A stretch of 64,000 bases of DNA. It comes from a virus. Every line of letters begins with the position of its first letter. Position 1 is the first letter of the stretch. Position numbers and translations under genes: made by a program. The notes beneath the pieces are model-generated. The model was given only the letters and a program-made list of their open reading frames with translations, did no database searches and had not been told where the DNA came from. Below, in pieces: positions 2,881 to 20,672 of the stretch. The DNA is taken from UHGV virus genome UHGV-1372088; one strand, 5' to 3'.

Positions 2881-3541
2881 GTTCAAAATCGAGTATCTGG
2901 ACCCCAGGACACTCGTGCCTTACGAAGAAAACGCCAAAATCCACGATGAGCAGCAGATCGCGGACCTGGTTAAAGCCATTCAGAAGCGCGGGTTTGACCA
3001 GCCGATCACGGTAGATGCCAAAATGGTCATCATTACCGGCCACGGTCGTCGCGAGGCTGCAATTCAGGCCGGAATGAAGACGGTCCCGGTGATTGTCCGT
3101 CGCGATCTGTCCGAGGAAGAGACGCGAGCGAAGCGCCTTGAAGATAACCGGCTGGCCAGCACCGATTACGACTCCCTGAAGCTGCAACGTGAGCTGAAAG
3201 AGCTGATTGACGTCGAAATTGACGTATTCGGCTTCTCTGATCGTGAGCTTTCCGTGCTGGTCGAGGATATGACCCGCGATATGGACGTTGACAGCCTGGT
3301 CAGCGATCTGGCAACCGAATCTGAGCGCCAGCGCGAAGAGCACGAAGAGATTAGCTCGACGGTGGCCGCCGGCACTGCGCGTATTACCGACGTTCTGGGC
3401 TTCAAAGAGATCCCCATGAGCGAGGCAATCACTGTCGGAGACCTGATGGCCTACATGGAGGACCAGACCGGTGAGTTCGGCGTCAGCGCCTTCATTGCTT
3501 TTGCTCGCCAGATCAGCGCCGAGATGAATGCCGATGAGTAA
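2870..3541 (+). CDS. second ParB N-terminal-domain-like protein
   Basis: YLDPRTLVPYEEN... ITGHGRREAAIQAG resembles the ParB GxxRxxA region. Overlaps the previous gene by 11 nt. Confidence 0.5.
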   Translation: MKNEFKIEYLDPRTLVPYEENAKIHDEQQIADLVKAIQKRGFDQPITVDAKMVIITGHGRREAAIQAGMKTVPVIVRRDLSEEETRAKRLEDNRLASTDYDSLKLQRELKELIDVEIDVFGFSDRELSVLVEDMTRDMDVDSLVSDLATESERQREEHEEISSTVAAGTARITDVLGFKEIPMSEAITVGDLMAYMEDQTGEFGVSAFIAFARQISAEMNADE

Positions 3542-11532: not shown

Positions 11533-11976
11533 GTGCCAGAGCAAAAGATGCAGATCACGTCAGAACCTTTTGACGATTACACCGGGTCGATGTTTCGTAC
11601 ATCGTTCACCAACTCCATCTCAGACAGCCCAATGTCCGAGCGAGCCCAGGGCGCACTGAAGGCTTGTTTCAAGTCTAAGCCATACGTCGATGCAGCCGCT
11701 GTAATTCACGTCCAGAGCGTAACGGTTGCCCCGAAGACGGCGACTGTGGTGGTGGGTGATACGGTTCAGTTGGCAGGCTCTATTAAGCCTGATGACGCCA
11801 CCGACCGCTCTTACCATTGGGTTACTGAAGATTCCGGCATTGCGACCGTCGATGTGTCTGGCCTGGTGACGGGTATCGCTGAAGGCAGTGTGAAGATTCG
11901 TCTGGTAGCCAATGACGGCTCTGTATTCGGCGAAGCGGCTATCACCGTAAACAATCCAGAGACAGTCCAGGTTTAA
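11533..11976 (+). CDS. Ig-like (Big_2) domain protein, probable capsid decoration protein
   Basis: VTVAPKTATVVVGDTVQLAGSIKP...VTGIAEGSVKIRLVANDGS is a typical bacterial Ig-like group 2 domain. Confidence 0.55.
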   Translation: MPEQKMQITSEPFDDYTGSMFRTSFTNSISDSPMSERAQGALKACFKSKPYVDAAAVIHVQSVTVAPKTATVVVGDTVQLAGSIKPDDATDRSYHWVTEDSGIATVDVSGLVTGIAEGSVKIRLVANDGSVFGEAAITVNNPETVQV

Positions 11977-13652: not shown

Positions 13653-14131
13653 AGTACAACGTAGGCAAGCTGGGCCGTCTGGCCGATCGCCTGACGAACT
13701 CCCAGAAAGCCTACAAGCGAAGCCTGATTAACGACATGACCAAGCTGGCCGTAACCGCGCAGAGGCTCGCAAGAGCCCTGGCGCCATACGAAACCGGATC
13801 GCTGGAGAACAGCATTTACGCGCGGGTTAACCGAAGCGACCTTGCCAGTCTGTCAATCGAGTTGGTTGTGATGAAAGACAGAGATAGGGTGGGTTCTCTA
13901 AATGGCGGCCGCCGGTACACTGGTGATGCAAAGGTCGGCGATTACGCAGAGTACATGGAGTCTGGCCGATACAGTCTGGGGGCTCGTTCCAGGCTTAAAC
14001 AGGGTGGGAATGCGCTTAGCAGGAAGGTTGGCCGACGTTTCATGGACAGGACTGCCGAGTTTATCCGAAATGAAATGAGGCGGATCATCGCCGACAGCGC
14101 ACAGAAGGCCGGCTTCGGCCGAAGGAGATAA
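13643..14131 (+). CDS. hypothetical head-tail joining / tail completion protein
   Basis: 162-aa ORF in the head-tail joining region. Confidence 0.3.
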   Translation: MGLEYNVGKLGRLADRLTNSQKAYKRSLINDMTKLAVTAQRLARALAPYETGSLENSIYARVNRSDLASLSIELVVMKDRDRVGSLNGGRRYTGDAKVGDYAEYMESGRYSLGARSRLKQGGNALSRKVGRRFMDRTAEFIRNEMRRIIADSAQKAGFGRRR

Positions 14132-14132
14132 C

Positions 14133-14507
14133 GTGATCATAGAACAGTTCGCGACATTGCTGGAAAAGAAGGGTGTTGGCAAGGTGGGAAAGACCATCTT
14201 CGCTAATGCGATGGGGGCGGAGGTAAAGTCTGGCGTCATGGTGGTGACTACAGGCATTGAGATTGATGGGGATCTGCACGACTTCTATCAGGACAATATG
14301 ATTGTGGTAGTCCGGGACGCCAGTATCGGCGCTGCAATGAAGCGAGCTGACCTGATTATGGCCGCTTTGCCGATGTGGGATGAGGAAGAGGCCGGTGTTC
14401 GTTTTCGTTACGTCAGGCCGCTGAATTTGCCGACTTTATTCCCAAGGAACGATGCATCTCTGTTTGAGGTGGGAATTTCCGTTGAGTTTGCCGCCCATTT
14501 GTTGTAA
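14133..14507 (+). CDS. hypothetical tail completion protein
   Basis: 124-aa ORF preceding the major tail protein. Confidence 0.3.
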   Translation: MIIEQFATLLEKKGVGKVGKTIFANAMGAEVKSGVMVVTTGIEIDGDLHDFYQDNMIVVVRDASIGAAMKRADLIMAALPMWDEEEAGVRFRYVRPLNLPTLFPRNDASLFEVGISVEFAAHLL

Positions 14508-14585
14508 TGGTTTTATAAGTATGTGTATACTTACCGTGCTTTAGATTAAGCACCCACAATTAAAGGTAAAAGGAGTTTACCGACA

Positions 14586-15077
14586 ATGGCTAATACCCAT
14601 GTAAAGAATATCAAGTTAGGCGCCTGTGCTGTTTCTTTCGGCGGCACCGATCTTGGCTACACCAAAGGCGGTGTTGAGGTAGAGATTTCCACCGAGACGC
14701 TGAAAGTCACCGTCGACCAGCAGGGCCAGACCACTCTGTCCGAGCTGGTTCAGGGTCGTAACGTCAAAGTTACCGTTCCGCTGGCCGAAAGCGTTCTGGA
14801 GAACATCGTCAACCTGATGCCTGGCTCTACCATTAGCACGGATAAGAAATCCATCTCCATCACCACCGCTCAGAGCGTGAATCTGATCGACGTGGCGCAG
14901 CAGCTGGTTCTTACCCCGCAGGATGGCACCGACTTCATTCTGACCCTGCCGAAAGCGGCCACCGCCGGCAACTTCACTATGGCGTATAAGTTCGATGACG
15001 TCCGCGTGTTCTCTGTCGAGTTCAATGCGTACCCGGATGACGCTGGTGTTTTGGGTAGCCTCACCAGCCCAAAGTAA
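14586..15077 (+). CDS. major tail (tube) protein, zero-frame product
   Basis: 163 aa preceding the chaperone and tape measure genes. Strong SD aaaggag. Ends at TAA directly after the slippery heptamer C_CCA_AAG. Confidence 0.6.
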   Translation: MANTHVKNIKLGACAVSFGGTDLGYTKGGVEVEISTETLKVTVDQQGQTTLSELVQGRNVKVTVPLAESVLENIVNLMPGSTISTDKKSISITTAQSVNLIDVAQQLVLTPQDGTDFILTLPKAATAGNFTMAYKFDDVRVFSVEFNAYPDDAGVLGSLTSPK

Positions 15078-15331
15078 GTGTGACGGGTGTGACTGTGGCG
15101 CCGGCAACTGCGTCGGTCAGGGTCGGTGCAACGACCACGCTGGCCAAAACAGTTTCCCCGTCTAACGCTGACGATCAAACCGGCACCTGGACATCCAGTA
15201 ACCCTGCCATCGCAACCGTTGATACCAAGGGCGTTGTGAGAGGGGTTGCCGCCGGTAATGCAACGGTGACGTTTGTTACGAAAGATGGTGGCTTCTCTGC
15301 CAAGTCTACCGTGACTGTGACGGCATCTTAA
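15059..15331 (+). CDS. -1 frameshift extension of the major tail protein, adding a C-terminal Big_2 Ig-like domain
   Basis: The -1 frame is open from 15059 (after the TAG at 15056-58). The heptamer C_CCA_AAG at 15068-15074 sits in the zero frame just before the stop. The extension contains VTVAPATASVRVGATTTLAKTVSP...ATVTFVTKDGG (Big_2). Confidence 0.6.
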   Translation, partial: PHQPKVSVTGVTVAPATASVRVGATTTLAKTVSPSNADDQTGTWTSSNPAIATVDTKGVVRGVAAGNATVTFVTKDGGFSAKSTVTVTAS

Positions 15332-15340
15332 TCAAATCAA

Positions 15341-15362
15341 GGCCCAGAAATGGGCCTCTTTA
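15341..15362 (+). terminator. hairpin ggccca gaaa tgggcc with a weak T tract
   Basis: Stem-loop immediately after the frameshift-product stop. Confidence 0.4.
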
Positions 15363-15375
15363 ACGAGATAAAAGT

Positions 15376-15693
15376 ATGGCTAAGTTACTAAATCTGGACA
15401 CGCTGGTTCCCGCCGTTAAGCAGGTTCAAATCGGCGGAAAGCAATATCCGATTGTAGAGATGAGTGTAGGTCTGTTCGCGGAAATTAAGCGCTTCGAAGG
15501 TAGCGAAATTGAATCCATGAGCATTGCTGATCAGGTTGCTGCGTATGCGGTTCTGGTTCAGAAGCTGATTCCCTCTCTGCCGCAGAATGTGTTGGACGAT
15601 CTCTCCGTTATCAACCTTCAGCAAATTTTCACCTTCGCACTGAACGTTGCGGATGAAACGAACGAAGCCGCCGCTGGCGACGAAGTAAAGTAG
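15376..15693 (+). CDS. tail assembly chaperone (lambda gpG-like)
   Basis: 105 aa between the major tail protein and the tape measure. Confidence 0.5.
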   Translation: MAKLLNLDTLVPAVKQVQIGGKQYPIVEMSVGLFAEIKRFEGSEIESMSIADQVAAYAVLVQKLIPSLPQNVLDDLSVINLQQIFTFALNVADETNEAAAGDEVK

Positions 15694-15716
15694 AAACCCG
15701 CGATGAATCCGATGAG

Positions 15717-16043
15717 GTGGTTTTGTCCATCGACTTCGGGTTCTATTTCAGTCGTGTAGCTGCTTATTACTCCTTGCCACCGAAACAACTACTGGAAATA
15801 CCGCTTGAGACATTCTGGATGATGAGTCGAAACATCGAACGAATCCAGTCAGAGCGCGACTTGAGAGATTTTCAGGTCGCCAGGGTCGCTCAGGCCGGTG
15901 TTGAAGATGCTAAGGCGTTCATGGAGGGTTTGCAGCTAAGGATTGGAAGACCTGTCATCACTGATAGGGTGTACAACCCAGAACGAGTCAAAGCAGACCC
16001 TGACGCCAAAGCGCAATTAATGGCAGTCTTTGGAAAAGGATAG
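15717..16043 (+). CDS. tail assembly chaperone T-like ORF (in the -1 frame relative to the G-like ORF)
   Basis: Frame relationship typical of gpG/gpGT. The -1 frame is open from 15657. No canonical X_XXY_YYZ heptamer was found in 15657-15690. Confidence 0.4.
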   Translation: MVLSIDFGFYFSRVAAYYSLPPKQLLEIPLETFWMMSRNIERIQSERDLRDFQVARVAQAGVEDAKAFMEGLQLRIGRPVITDRVYNPERVKADPDAKAQLMAVFGKG

Positions 16044-16046
16044 GGA

Positions 16047-19000
16047 ATGTCCGACAATATCGTAGATTTTAAGCTGATCCTCAATGATAAGGAGTTCGAG
16101 GTATCAGCTAAAAATGCCGGGAAGTTACTCAAACAGCTGAGTGTGGATGCGGGTTTAGCGTCCAAGAAAATCTCCAACCTTGATGTTTCTGTCAACTCTC
16201 TGACGCGAAACATCAAAATCTTCACCGTAGCAGTGGGTAAAGCGGCCTCGGAACTCCAGGATTTGGGAGTCGGGGCCGAACTCGCTGGCAATGCGCTTCG
16301 TGATATTCGTACTCACATTGCCGCAATCAGTCGCAGCTTAACAGTATTCAACGACCGCGTTGGCAAAACCACAACCGCACTGAAAGGTATGGCGAGTGAG
16401 CTGCGCAAGGTTCAGTCTGAACTTTCCGACTTCAGTGATTATGCCAACCACGCAGGCAAGTCTACGCGCGACCTGACCGCGAACGTAGACGATCTCAATA
16501 AGAAAGCCTCCACCACAAATCGTCGCTTAAACAATACGACAAAGGCACTGGCCGGCTGGAAGGACTCTGGTGACAAGGCGAAGGACGCGCTGAAAGAAAT
16601 CATCAGCCAGATGGATACGCTCATTGACCGTCAGAAAGAGCTGAAGGGTTTGGGACGTGCTGATGTTGGCGGGCCAGGTCGCGGCGGTAGTGGCGGTAGT
16701 GGCGGTCGTGGCGGTAGTGGCGGCGGTCGCCACCATAGCAGTTCTTTTGGCGGCGTAAGAGGGACCATCTTTGCTTTAGGCGAAGTGGGTGATGCAGCCC
16801 GAAACGTCAGAGATATGCTGTTTGGCTGGCAAGCGCCCATCATCGAGGCAGCAGCTGAAATGCAGAAGATGCAGATGCTTCTGCAAGGTATAAACAAGGA
16901 TGCAGCCGATCCATTTGCCGCAGCGGCGAAGGATATGGACTACATCATCGCCACCGCTAAAAGTGCGCCTTTTGCGATTGGCGAGTTGACGGGCTCATTC
17001 GTCAAATTCAAGTCGGCAGGATTAGATCCGACGAATGGCTCGTGGAAGACGCTGATCGACTCCGTTGCCCGATTCGGCGGCAGTAGTGAAACGCTTGACC
17101 GCGCAGCCGTCGCTATCCAGCAGATGGCAGGTAAAGGCGTCATCTCGATGGAAGAGCTGCGTCAGCAGCTGGGTGAGGCTGTTCCTACCGCAATGAAGGC
17201 GATGGCGGACGGCATGGGCGTTACTGTAGCCGAGCTTACAAAGCAGATCTCTACCGGCACAGTGAATGCTCAGGAAGGTTTGCGTCTCATGTTCGTTGGT
17301 ATGGATGCCATGAACCGTGGCGCCGCGAAGAGCATGATGGTCACCTACATTGGCGCCCTGGCTCAGATGAAGACCGCCTTCATTCAGTTCTCTAAGACGG
17401 TTGGCGATTCCGGCTATCTCGAAGCTATGTCAAAGAGTCTCAACGAGATCACCGCGTTGATGAATAGCACAGATGGCAGGATGTTTGCCGCGTCTCTGGG
17501 CCAAAACCTGGCGACCGCGATCACGTCTCTGACGTCTATGGCCAGGTGGCTTGTCCAGAATCGAGAGCTGATTATCAATCTCGGCGCAGCTATTGCGGCG
17601 TTCGTAGGCTTCAGGTTGCTTCGCTCTGGGATCTTGGAGGTGATTAGCGTCGGCAGCCAGATGGTGTCTGTGCTCGGTAAAAGCGTAACCGGATTACAGG
17701 CTCCATTTAATCTCCTGTCAGCCTCAGTGACCAGATTTAGTCGAGCGTCAAGGCTTGGACTTGGGACTATCCCAGCTCTCCTGTTCTCGATCAGGGGTGG
17801 TCTGACGGCAGTTAAGGTGGCGTTTGCTTCTCTGTCTGCGTTCATCGTCTCCAACCCGATTGGGGCCGCATTGCTTGCGATATCGACTGCCGTAGGCGTT
17901 ATCGTTTGGGCGATGGGGAAGCTGAGAGATAAGACCGCGCAGACCGTAGAAGAGCTCAAGAAGATGCCTGAGGCGATGACGCAGATCCAGCGCACTCAGA
18001 TTCTGCTCGATGTCAAGAAGCGAAACGCGGAGATTGAGCGTGACGAGAATCTTCTTCAGTCAATCAAATCAGGCAAGCTCTCGGCGGACGCTCTGCCGGC
18101 AGACATCGCAACGGGCAGACAGCTGACTGTTAAAGATGTCGAAAACAGAGTTAAAACAAACAAGGCGATAAATGGCGACTACACTGGCCTGGTCACGAAA
18201 AGCGACGAGATAAAGGCCAAGGAGACGGCATCAGGCGTAACTAAGGCGGTGTTCGAAGACATTGAGAAGCGGCTCAATGTCGGTATGGCTAAATTCGCGG
18301 CAGGTCAGATGCGAGAGAATGAGGCCAAAAGGATCGCTTTGGACGCCGACAAATCTCTCTCCAAGGAAGAGAAGGATAAGCGCCGGGATGAGATAAACCG
18401 CTCAGAGGCAAACGCTCAAGCCGACCTCTACAAGAAGGCCGCTGACGAGATGGAAGCGCGGGTTAAAAGTGTCGCCACACAGGTTAAAAACTTGGATGAG
18501 GCGCTGAGTAAACCTGGCCTGAGTGAAGATCAGAGAAAAATCCTGACCGCTCAAAAGTACGGTTACGCGAGCAACTATGAAGAGTCGAAGCAGCAGCTCG
18601 ACGACATGCGCAACAAGGAAAAAGATACCCGAAACAGTCGCCACGGTATCCCTGACGCCAGCGGCGAATATTCCAGCGCATCCGGGGCTAAAGCCGATCA
18701 CCAGGTTTACGTAGCCAGAGTTAAGAACGACTTCAAGAACGGCGCAACGAGCATCATCGGCGAAGATGGCCAGATCGCCAAGGATGTTTTGGGTAATGAC
18801 ATCGAGGGCATTAACCAGTTCAGAGCCAACGAGACTATCATCTCCAAATACGGCTCAAACGTAACCGGGGAACAGCGTAAGAAAGCCGAGGAAGCGTTGA
18901 CGGCTGCCATTTTGCGAGACACCCAGATCCGCACAAAGGCAGCCGAAACGGCAAGCAAGAAAGAAGAAAGTGCTAACAACAAGGCGCAAAAGGCGGCCGA

Positions 19001-20672
19001 GCGTAAGCAGAGGGAACTTCAGAAAGAGGCTGATGGCTACAACAAGACGCTGAACTCTTCTGAGCAGATGATCTCCATGATGGAGACGGGCTCTAAGAGA
19101 ACCGTTTCGTTTGCCCAGAACGTCGAGAAGACGTCCGTGTCGCTTGAGAAGCTGGCTAACTCTTCCCCTACCGAGCTCATCACGCAGGAGATGATCGACA
19201 AGGCGAAAGAGTATCTGGAGACAATGAAGACGCTGTCTCCTGACTATCTGAAGCGACTGGAGAAGAAGGCCGCCAAGAAAGATTTGGACGATGTCGCGCC
19301 AAATGCAGCCGGTATCATTAGTTCCGGGCTTGATGGTTCGCAATCCAGAGACGAGCAGGTTGAGGCGTTCAGGACCAAGTATGACGAAAGTCTGAACGCG
19401 CTTGAGAGCCGTCGCAAGCAGTACATGAGTCAGTTGAAAGACGACCCAAGTATGCAGGTTTACGTTGAAGAGTCGACCAAGCGGATCAATCAGCTGATTA
19501 AATCTGGCAACGTCGCGCTCATCAAAGAAACCGGCACCGCCACGCAGAAGCTGGCGCTGGAGTATGGCGATCTGGCTACGCAGATTGAAAGCGTTTGGGC
19601 GGATACCTTCTCTGGTTTGACCGACACGCTGACCGAGTTCTTCTCGACGGGCAAGGCGAGCTTCAGTGACTTCGCCTCGTCGATTATGAAGGACATCACC
19701 AAAATGATCGTGAAGAGCCAGATCACACTGCCTCTCATGAACATGTTGGGGATGGGCTCGGGACAGACGGCCATGCAGCAGACGGGCCAAGGCAATCTGA
19801 TGTCGTCCCTTGCTAACCAGGGCGTCTCTCTGTTTTCTGGCGCAGCAACGAATGGCGGCGGCACCAACGTTGTTAATGGCGACGGTAACGTGGCCACCAA
19901 CAGCAAAACGGCCTCGCAGTCCGTTGGTAAGTTAGGCTCGACAACCGCATCGACGACGGAGGGTGTGAGCTCTCTTGGGACGGCGGTGGTCGGAGTCGGC
20001 GGTGCGTTAAGCAATGTGAGCACGGCGGTAGGTTCCCAGACCAAGGCGATCATGTCGAACATCTTCAGCATGAAGGGGCTACAGACCGCCTCCAATGCGC
20101 TGATGTTCACCTTCGCCGCAATGTCAGCCAGTTCCTCGTCCAAAACGAGCAAGTGGTTGGGCTTCGCGGGTACGGTAGCTTCTGGGGTCGCCTCGATATA
20201 TGCCGGTGGTGGATTCAGTGGCGGCGGTTCTGGTGAATCTCCTGGCGGCGGAACGGCGATTCAGAATGCCGGGGCAAACTATAAATTCGCCAAGGGCGGG
20301 ATTATGGGGCCGGATGGTGCTCTGCCGCTGCACAAGTATGCCAAGGGCGGGATTGCAACGTCGCCTCAGCTGGCGCTTTTCGGCGAGGGCTCTCATAACG
20401 AGGCATATGTCCCGCTGCCGGACGGCCGGTCCATTCCTGTCACGATGTCCGCCGAAAAGACAGCTGGTCTTGGCGCTGGTGCTGGTGTGGTGGCCCCTGT
20501 TTCCATCTCCATCAACGTTCAGGCTGACGGTGTCTCTTCTGCAAGCGGCGCTGACTCGACCCAGGGGTGGAAGGATGCAGCTGAGAAGATGAAGGCGATC
20601 GCGCTCGACACCATCCGTCAGGAGAAGCGACCTGGCGGATCGCTTAACGCAAACACTACGGGCAACCGTTAA
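16047..20672 (+). CDS. tail tape measure protein
   Basis: 1541 aa, coiled-coil rich, Gly-rich (GGS)n tract. C-terminal AKGGIMGPDG...YAKGGIATSPQLALFGEG motif. Positioned before the M/L/K/I/J homologues. Confidence 0.85.
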   Translation: MSDNIVDFKLILNDKEFEVSAKNAGKLLKQLSVDAGLASKKISNLDVSVNSLTRNIKIFTVAVGKAASELQDLGVGAELAGNALRDIRTHIAAISRSLTVFNDRVGKTTTALKGMASELRKVQSELSDFSDYANHAGKSTRDLTANVDDLNKKASTTNRRLNNTTKALAGWKDSGDKAKDALKEIISQMDTLIDRQKELKGLGRADVGGPGRGGSGGSGGRGGSGGGRHHSSSFGGVRGTIFALGEVGDAARNVRDMLFGWQAPIIEAAAEMQKMQMLLQGINKDAADPFAAAAKDMDYIIATAKSAPFAIGELTGSFVKFKSAGLDPTNGSWKTLIDSVARFGGSSETLDRAAVAIQQMAGKGVISMEELRQQLGEAVPTAMKAMADGMGVTVAELTKQISTGTVNAQEGLRLMFVGMDAMNRGAAKSMMVTYIGALAQMKTAFIQFSKTVGDSGYLEAMSKSLNEITALMNSTDGRMFAASLGQNLATAITSLTSMARWLVQNRELIINLGAAIAAFVGFRLLRSGILEVISVGSQMVSVLGKSVTGLQAPFNLLSASVTRFSRASRLGLGTIPALLFSIRGGLTAVKVAFASLSAFIVSNPIGAALLAISTAVGVIVWAMGKLRDKTAQTVEELKKMPEAMTQIQRTQILLDVKKRNAEIERDENLLQSIKSGKLSADALPADIATGRQLTVKDVENRVKTNKAINGDYTGLVTKSDEIKAKETASGVTKAVFEDIEKRLNVGMAKFAAGQMRENEAKRIALDADKSLSKEEKDKRRDEINRSEANAQADLYKKAADEMEARVKSVATQVKNLDEALSKPGLSEDQRKILTAQKYGYASNYEESKQQLDDMRNKEKDTRNSRHGIPDASGEYSSASGAKADHQVYVARVKNDFKNGATSIIGEDGQIAKDVLGNDIEGINQFRANETIISKYGSNVTGEQRKKAEEALTAAILRDTQIRTKAAETASKKEESANNKAQKAAERKQRELQKEADGYNKTLNSSEQMISMMETGSKRTVSFAQNVEKTSVSLEKLANSSPTELITQEMIDKAKEYLETMKTLSPDYLKRLEKKAAKKDLDDVAPNAAGIISSGLDGSQSRDEQVEAFRTKYDESLNALESRRKQYMSQLKDDPSMQVYVEESTKRINQLIKSGNVALIKETGTATQKLALEYGDLATQIESVWADTFSGLTDTLTEFFSTGKASFSDFASSIMKDITKMIVKSQITLPLMNMLGMGSGQTAMQQTGQGNLMSSLANQGVSLFSGAATNGGGTNVVNGDGNVATNSKTASQSVGKLGSTTASTTEGVSSLGTAVVGVGGALSNVSTAVGSQTKAIMSNIFSMKGLQTASNALMFTFAAMSASSSSKTSKWLGFAGTVASGVASIYAGGGFSGGGSGESPGGGTAIQNAGANYKFAKGGIMGPDGALPLHKYAKGGIATSPQLALFGEGSHNEAYVPLPDGRSIPVTMSAEKTAGLGAGAGVVAPVSISINVQADGVSSASGADSTQGWKDAAEKMKAIALDTIRQEKRPGGSLNANTTGNR

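Follow-up and report, generated by a model that had tools for sequence, protein, structure and literature searches.

We analysed a 64,000-nucleotide (nt) stretch of DNA from the UHGV virus genome UHGV-1372088, referred to here as the window, which is, judged by its sequence, an SSU5-like phage-plasmid of Klebsiella. The analysis concerns the 3' end of the gene for the major tail (tube) protein, where a slippery heptamer, an adjoining stop codon and an immunoglobulin-like (Ig-like) domain in the -1 frame lie together, and where the tube protein is very probably extended by a programmed -1 ribosomal frameshift. The junction sequence was read directly, and the features of the locus are as follows.

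14586-15077, + strand: short tail-tube (major tail) open reading frame (ORF) of 163 amino acids (aa), from the ORF list; terminal residues SPK, stop TAA
15068-15074, + strand: slippery heptamer C_CCA_AAG in the X_XXY_YYZ register; zero-frame codons AGC CCA AAG
15075-15077, + strand: zero-frame stop TAA, directly 3' of the heptamer (a 'shifty stop' context), from the direct read
15074-15331, + strand: predicted -1 extension after the slip, 85 codons plus stop; Big_2 domain at about 15086-15325

The 163-aa ORF ends with CTC ACC AGC CCA AAG TAA. In the -1 frame, a TAG lies upstream at 15056-58, and the frame is then open from 15059 to the TAA at 15329-31, a length of 90 sense codons. The original prediction had placed the ORF, the heptamer, the TAG and the -1 frame correctly in every case, as the direct read shows, and its proposal of a Big_2 Ig-like domain in the -1 frame was confirmed by Pfam. 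The -1 ORF matches the full length of this domain (PF02368, 74 bits, E=9e-21, profile positions 2-79 of 79), and the gathering cutoff of the family is 22.8 bits. The predicted fusion reads ...LTSPK followed by VSVTGV... and comprises 248 aa, the length of the in-frame orthologue of SSU5; its predicted junction-spanning peptide is ...LTSPK-VSVTGVTVAPATASVR.

Identity of the tube protein and its Ig-like domain

The 163-aa ORF matched phrog_1280 over profile positions 1-163 (E=6e-89), and the -1 ORF matched positions 164-246 of the same 248-position profile (E=1.6e-15). The 163-aa ORF also gave a weak match to phrog_885, 'major tail protein' (E=4e-7). No Pfam family matched the tube domain, and sequence and profile searches against the PDB returned no meaningful match for it. 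An AlphaFold2 (AF2) model of the tube domain, built on a 69-sequence alignment, reached a predicted local distance difference test (pLDDT) score of 81.8; an earlier model on a shallow alignment of 20 sequences (pLDDT 52.8) was discarded. When the AF2 model was submitted to Foldseek, it retrieved solved tail-tube proteins of siphoviruses, myoviruses and tailocins, plus Hcp, with prob 1.00, TM of 0.5-0.65 and E down to 4e-6.

The gene lies between a tail terminator gene and the chaperone and tape-measure genes, and the Big_2 domain of the window matches the C-terminal domain of the lambda major tail protein V (PDB 2l04 and 9mfe; gpV residues 159-245, E ~3e-7). The phrog matches, the fold found with AF2 and Foldseek, the gene position and the gpV match of Big_2 therefore support, in part through a predicted model, the assignment of 14586-15077 as the major tail (tube) protein, with an Ig-like decoration domain in the -1 frame. 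The label 'major tail protein' of the original prediction agrees with this tube fold and with the expected position of the gene.

A second Big_2 domain, 40% identical to that of the tail protein, was observed in frame at 11704-11949 of the window, where it forms the C-terminus of an upstream structural (capsid-associated) protein. As a duplicated source of the tail domain it was uninformative, since it is no closer to the tail Big_2 than the SSU5 tail Ig domain, at 42.5% identity.

Split and in-frame arrangements among relatives

A near-identity DNA search of a phage collection with the window returned no match, and the close relatives were found in a plasmid collection instead. At least 99.5% identity over 14000-16100, together with the same junction, was seen in four complete plasmids of Klebsiella (104-114 kb; Nigeria, Australia and the UK). 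The protein-level search recovered SSU5-like phage-plasmids. The SSU5 orthologue, gp012 (YP_006906644, 'Ig domain containing protein'), is a single in-frame 248-aa protein with the junction GGC CCA AAG CCG GTT AAA. This protein and its orthologues in E. coli, Klebsiella and Salmonella phage-plasmids (phrog_1280) have the same module as the window, with a tube domain about 75% identical and the same Pro-Lys joint. They differ from the window in that Big_2 is in frame, so that every subunit is decorated, in that the heptamer is drifting, and in that the Ig domain is only 42.5% identical. About 80 other loci from IMG/VR and GTDB genomes are also in frame and encode a single protein of 245-253 aa, whose two domains are joined at the same Pro-Lys. 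Among the complete E. coli genomes, only the in-frame SSU5 type was found, and the match was limited to the tube part (75% identity). Because the in-frame orthologues join the same two domains at the same Pro-Lys, the -1 ORF corresponds to the normal C-terminal domain of the tube protein.

The split arrangement was found at 25 loci belonging to at least eight diverged lineages, each with xxC CCA AAG plus a stop and with a -1 frame that encodes a complete, uninterrupted Big_2 (84-87 codons). The split junctions, by locus, are as follows.

Window and L002-5: AGC CCA AAG TAA
L006/7, L029-33 and L042: GCC CCA AAG TAG
L041: GCC CCA AAG TAA
L043/44: GCC CCA AAG TAA
L109/110: AAC CCA AAG TAA
L111/112: AAC CCA AAG TAG
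L113-115: AAC CCA AAG TGA
L116/117: AAC CCA AAG TAA

The residue before Pro in these lineages is Ser (AGC), Ala (GCC) or Asn (AAC), and its codon always ends in C. A stop adjoins the heptamer at exactly the same position in eight of the eight lineages, with TAA, TAG and TGA all in use. In the in-frame clade, by contrast, the same two codons drift among CCA AAG, CCA AAA, CCT AAA and CAA AAG.

Between split lineages, pairwise synonymous divergence (dS) was 0.5-1.5. The ratio of nonsynonymous to synonymous divergence (dN/dS) was 0.02-0.10 for the tube domain and, similarly low, 0.10-0.16 for the -1 ORF, which is thus under purifying selection. Synonymous variation, defined as the share of same-amino-acid codon pairs with a different codon, was 0.20 in the nine codons centred on the slip site, compared with 0.49 over the whole gene. 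This was the second-lowest value along the gene, after the start-codon region, and the variation returned to 0.5-0.6 within about five codons of the slip site. The heptamer C_CCA_AAG was unchanged in all 25 split-type loci (at least eight lineages, near saturation at synonymous sites); from codon usage, it would be expected at a frequency of about 0.046 per independent lineage, given the amino acids. These patterns of conservation show that the -1 ORF is translated, in whatever mode, and that the slip site is under selection.

The same data bear on the reading of the gene as a frameshift-inactivated pseudogene, in which a 1-nt indel would have cost the protein its Ig domain and left the short tube protein as the only relevant product. 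In six PLSDB plasmid tables, the series of locus tags has a gap of one exactly at the tube gene, which suggests a pseudogene call. In more distant relatives (Pseudomonas, Halomonas and alphaproteobacterial elements), the tube protein is 160-180 aa long and lacks Big_2, and the Ig domain is therefore dispensable in principle. However, the -1 ORF is open for about 85 codons in 25 of 25 loci and eight lineages, its low dN/dS holds at dS up to 1.5, and the heptamer and the adjacent stop are both conserved. As far as substitution patterns can tell, the selection analysis effectively refutes the pseudogene reading, to which we assign very little probability.

That the frame change stems from misread or misassembled C3/A3 runs, or from slippage of RNA polymerase during transcription, is scarcely credible. 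The presence of short homopolymers is the single point in its favour, whereas the junction is identical in independent complete plasmids and in hundreds of contigs, which rules out an assembly error. The junction is also conserved in diverged lineages, and this conservation, together with the purifying selection on the -1 ORF, excludes sequencing error as well as a pseudogene. RNA polymerase slippage is known at runs of about 7-9 A or T, and the 3-nt runs here are far below that length. An identical 163-aa ORF was found on 367 contigs, and the ORF downstream of it on 194; the 248-aa fusion product had no entry in a collection of 15 billion proteins.

One locus of the SSU5 type, L103 (2974-3197; IMGVR_UViG_3300014614_000001), has an internal deletion just past the Pro-Lys that leaves Big_2 shortened and places it in the +1 frame. 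This locus appears to be a genuinely defective variant, unlike the conserved -1 class.

Proposed slippage and the search for a stimulator

We consider it very probable that a conserved programmed -1 ribosomal frameshift at the 3' end of the tube gene gives rise to short and long tube isoforms. The original prediction of such a shift at C_CCA_AAG, adding Big_2 to the major tail protein, is supported by the tube fold and gene position, the conserved heptamer and stop, the purifying selection on the -1 ORF and the measured efficiency of the heptamer in E. coli (PMC4066793). In that study, C_CCA_AAG gave the highest -1 frameshifting of 64 heptamers, reaching 54% with the IS3 pseudoknot (PMC4066793). 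The heptamer has also been termed 'highly shift-prone', a property that is attributed to the single tRNA-Lys and its weak pairing with AAG (PMC5009743).

The scheme that follows is inferred as regards the slippage and its efficiency, the stimulating role of the stop, how the two forms co-assemble and what the Ig domain does. The majority of ribosomes would translate ...Ser-Pro-Lys and terminate at TAA, which would yield the undecorated 163-aa tube subunit. A minority would move one base back on C_CCA_AAG, with tRNA-Pro re-pairing from CCA to CCC and the single tRNA-Lys(mnm5s2UUU) from AAG to AAA; slow termination at the adjacent stop would allow time for the slip. After the slip, GTA AGT GTG... 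would be read, and a 248-aa subunit would result, with a C-terminal Big_2 equivalent to the C-terminal domain of lambda gpV. Because both isoforms have the tube fold, we propose that they would co-assemble into a tail tube with fewer than one Ig-like domain per subunit. Judged from other Ig-like domains of phages, those on the tube would probably adhere weakly to cell-surface carbohydrate.

RNA structure was assessed by single-sequence folds with shuffles, by RNAalifold on the close lineages and on all lineages, and by explicit pair counting, methods limited to pseudoknot-free folds. A 3' stimulatory structure was sought 5-9 nt downstream of the heptamer. The GC-rich segment at 15096-15125, which the original prediction had proposed as the stimulatory structure, did not hold up in this role: its core begins 15 nt past the heptamer, it folds no better than shuffles, and it shows neither conservation nor covariation. 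Folded over 15075-15135, the region 3' of the heptamer gave -21.8 kcal/mol (z=-0.63), like shuffled sequence. RNAalifold yielded one other candidate.

15081-15163, + strand: predicted long-range stem (U)GACGGG / CCCGUC(A) enclosing a GC-rich hairpin; candidate stimulator, this lineage only

The stem starts 6-7 nt past the heptamer in the window and its closer relatives, and the fold of 15078-15160 gave -37.2 kcal/mol (z=-1.8). It is broken without compensation in L109 and L113 (two of the eight lineages), and the RNAalifold covariation term is positive. The covariation score from pair counting, 0.124, was reached by 405 of 500 shuffles. We rejected the stem as a conserved element, as it follows conserved amino acids (VTG, SPS) and fails uncompensated in L109 and L113. 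The adjacent stop is the sole conserved 3' feature at the slip site, and it may itself act as the stimulator.

The 'shifty stop' concept of Weiss et al. 1987 (as cited in PMC5009743) offers another mechanism for the same recoding, in which tRNA-Lys alone would slip in the P site, re-pairing with AAA instead of AAG, with the stop codon still undecoded in the A site. This is consistent with the stop that adjoins the heptamer in every split lineage and with the lack of a conserved structure in the searches described above. The chaperone gene downstream points the same way: it ends (G)NA AAG TAA/TAG with the T frame in -1, and since the preceding codon there is GCA or GTA, tandem slippage is impossible and A_AAG plus a stop appears sufficient. 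Against a single-tRNA slip at the tube gene, C_CC-A is also unchanged, and the codon before Pro always ends in C despite changes of the amino acid. The invariance of C_CC in all split lineages argues that tRNA-Pro re-pairs too, and tandem slippage is the accepted mechanism for C_CCA_AAG (PMC4066793). We therefore regard the P-site slip as possible rather than probable.

Several observations weigh against a programmed frameshift at the tube gene in general. No conserved or covarying downstream RNA structure was found across the split lineages by RNAalifold or pair counting. Heptamers without a stimulator gave only 2-10 times the background of about 0.05% in E. coli reporters (PMC4066793), so that a stimulator is expected and the efficiency at the tube gene would depend on it. 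Upstream, a GGG(A/U) element lies 11-14 nt away; it is encoded by a conserved Leu-Gly, and because the in-frame relatives have the same coding, it is uninformative as a Shine-Dalgarno-like stimulator. In a neighbour-joining tree, which did not place L109/L110 (P0024), the split lineages fall in one clade, along with the L008 type, an in-frame lineage whose linker has 9 residues. As the split lineages share this clade, the arrangement may have had a single origin.

A last point of this kind is a GTG two codons past the slip point, present in all eight split lineages. It would allow a free 83-aa Ig-like protein to be made without any fusion, by termination and then re-initiation at the GTG at 15080, 3 nt past the stop. 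Gene callers often call the Big_2 ORF separately, and purifying selection on this ORF is compatible with any translation mode. However, no Shine-Dalgarno-like sequence lies upstream of the GTG in any split lineage, and the codon specifies the Val of a V-T-G motif shared with the L008-type proteins, which are in frame. Re-initiation also leaves the unchanged C_CCA_AAG and the conserved wobble bases unexplained. In every in-frame orthologue, the domain is covalently joined at the same Pro-Lys, and a free Big_2 would have no evident way of attaching to the tail. For these reasons, re-initiation appears improbable, and a frameshift that appends the domain to the tube protein remains the preferred reading.

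Neighbouring sites, known systems and significance

The genes that flank the tube gene are listed below.

14133-14507: tail terminator (PF12691, from Pfam), upstream of the tube gene
15376-16043: G/T-like chaperone ORFs, downstream of the tube gene
16047-20672: tape-measure gene, 1541 aa, downstream of the chaperone ORFs

The G-like ORF (15376-15693) ends with GTA AAG TAG, and the T-like -1 frame is open from 15657 to 16043. The sole shifty motif in the overlap is A_AAG at 15687-15690, directly before the TAG at 15691-15693, and the predicted GT fusion has 222 aa, reading ...GDEVK/VETRDESDEVV... at its joint. The ending (G)NA AAG TAA/TAG of the chaperone gene, with the -1 reading KV(I/V/E)(S/T)R(D/E)E, is family-wide and includes members with an in-frame tube gene as well as Xenorhabdus and Photorhabdus elements. 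Two sites of the A_AAG-plus-stop design, one at the tube gene and one at the chaperone gene, thus seem to be in use within about 650 nt in the SSU5-like family. A further highly shift-prone heptamer, G_GGA_AAG at 14186-14192, stands in register within the tail terminator gene; the -1 frame meets a stop after six codons, and the site is probably incidental.

More distant tube orthologues also carry shift-prone motifs at the corresponding C-terminal position. In L016 (Xenorhabdus szentirmaii, ~2980-3090), the gene ends with GCA AAA AAA AAG TAA, and in L017 (Morganella psychrotolerans, ~2960-3120) with GGA AAA AAG GTG TGA, both of which contain A_AAA_AAG. In these two loci the -1 ORF encodes an acidic tail of 32-48 aa, not Big_2. 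L015 (X. hominickii, ~2975-3090) has a run of about 10 A, which places the tail homologous to theirs in the +1 frame. Recoding or slippage may recur at the tube C-terminus.

Many in-frame orthologues (SSU5 gp012 at L001 3480-3500, L008, and L049-L069) retain C_CCA_AAG, with a -1 stop within one or two codons. The -1 reading is CCC AAA GCC GGT TAA in SSU5, with TAA or TGA as the stop among such orthologues, and CCC AAA GCC TAA in the L008 type, and a slip there would produce a tube-only protein. The retained heptamer may be an ancestral residue. 'Reverse' frameshifting in the in-frame relatives was considered and not adopted, as about 20 in-frame loci have no heptamer (CCT AAA). A broader conjecture, which we consider rather unlikely, is that the whole SSU5-like family sets the density of tail Ig domains by recoding at the Pro-Lys junction. 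This would take the form of extension in the window-type clade, dnaX-like truncation in many in-frame members, and an acidic tail in the Xenorhabdus and Morganella relatives. If this were true, the tube C-terminus would be a conserved hotspot of recoding, with selection acting on the ratio of its outputs.

Frameshift-appended Ig-like domains are a recurrent phage theme, and related phages carry the same domain in frame (PMC5009743); the description of this theme as known, made in the original prediction, is accordingly borne out. Examples are Lactobacillus phage A2 (-1), the T3 capsid protein 10B (-1) and the major tail proteins of the Listeria phages A118, A500 and PSA (+1) (PMC5009743). As is proposed for the window, one structural gene of the A2, T3 and Listeria phages yields both a short product and one extended by a C-terminal Ig domain, with the shift near the stop. 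The window differs from them in its setting, a phage-plasmid of Enterobacteriaceae, and in its C_CCA_AAG with an adjoining stop; furthermore, the tail-protein cases in PMC5009743 are +1, and the two products of the window are predicted ones. Lambda gpV likewise combines a tail-tube N-terminal domain with a C-terminal Big_2, although gpV is a single in-frame protein and the N-terminal domains have no detectable sequence similarity. In Bacillus phage SPP1, gp17.1 and gp17.1* are reportedly related by a +1 shift, which is said to have been described by Auzat et al. in 2008.

E. coli dnaX (A_AAA_AAG) and copA, whose frameshifting is on record (PMC9548414), are likewise enterobacterial -1 slips on X_XXA_AAG, with weak pairing between tRNA-Lys and AAG (PMC5009743). 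In both, the shift truncates the product and has defined stimulators (a Shine-Dalgarno-like element plus a hairpin, or a pseudoknot), whereas in the window the shift would extend the product and the stop is the only conserved flank. The copA heptamer is reportedly C_CCA_AAG, a finding ascribed to Meydan et al. in 2017. The lambda-paradigm G/GT pair is also a conserved -1 shift in a tail module, and the G/GT pair of the window, with its A_AAG plus stop, lies about 600 nt downstream of the tube site. The two differ in outcome, as the G/GT product is an assembly chaperone absent from virions, whereas the shift at the tube gene would give a structural isoform.

In the annotated plasmids L002, L004, L005, L006 and L007 (CP037443, CP056499, CP110757, NZ_CP155713 and NZ_CP103584), a single locus tag is absent from each table at the position of the tube gene (BMD99_028105 and ABDC16_RS00065 are two such tags); PGAP has probably treated the gene as a pseudogene with a frameshift. 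Other records label the downstream ORF 'head outer capsid protein' or 'YjdB'. In the library searched, no paper was found that connects SSU5 or phage-plasmids with frameshifting or describes the tube slip site. The frameshift-appended Ig domain is an established theme, and what is new here is a probable and unannotated case in SSU5-like Klebsiella phage-plasmids.

The general picture is unchanged, since the addition of Ig-like domains to phage structural proteins by frameshift is already well established. In hundreds of Klebsiella phage-plasmid assemblies, the gene is left unannotated, split into two hypothetical ORFs or apparently flagged as a pseudogene, and recognition of the recoding site would put right how the major tail protein is annotated in a phage-plasmid group that is clinically common. 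A C_CCA_AAG heptamer with a stop and no conserved RNA structure would also be useful for separating tandem from stop-dependent slippage. Finally, the occurrence of in-frame and frameshift versions within one close family offers a natural comparison for the selective advantage of partial decoration of the tail tube.

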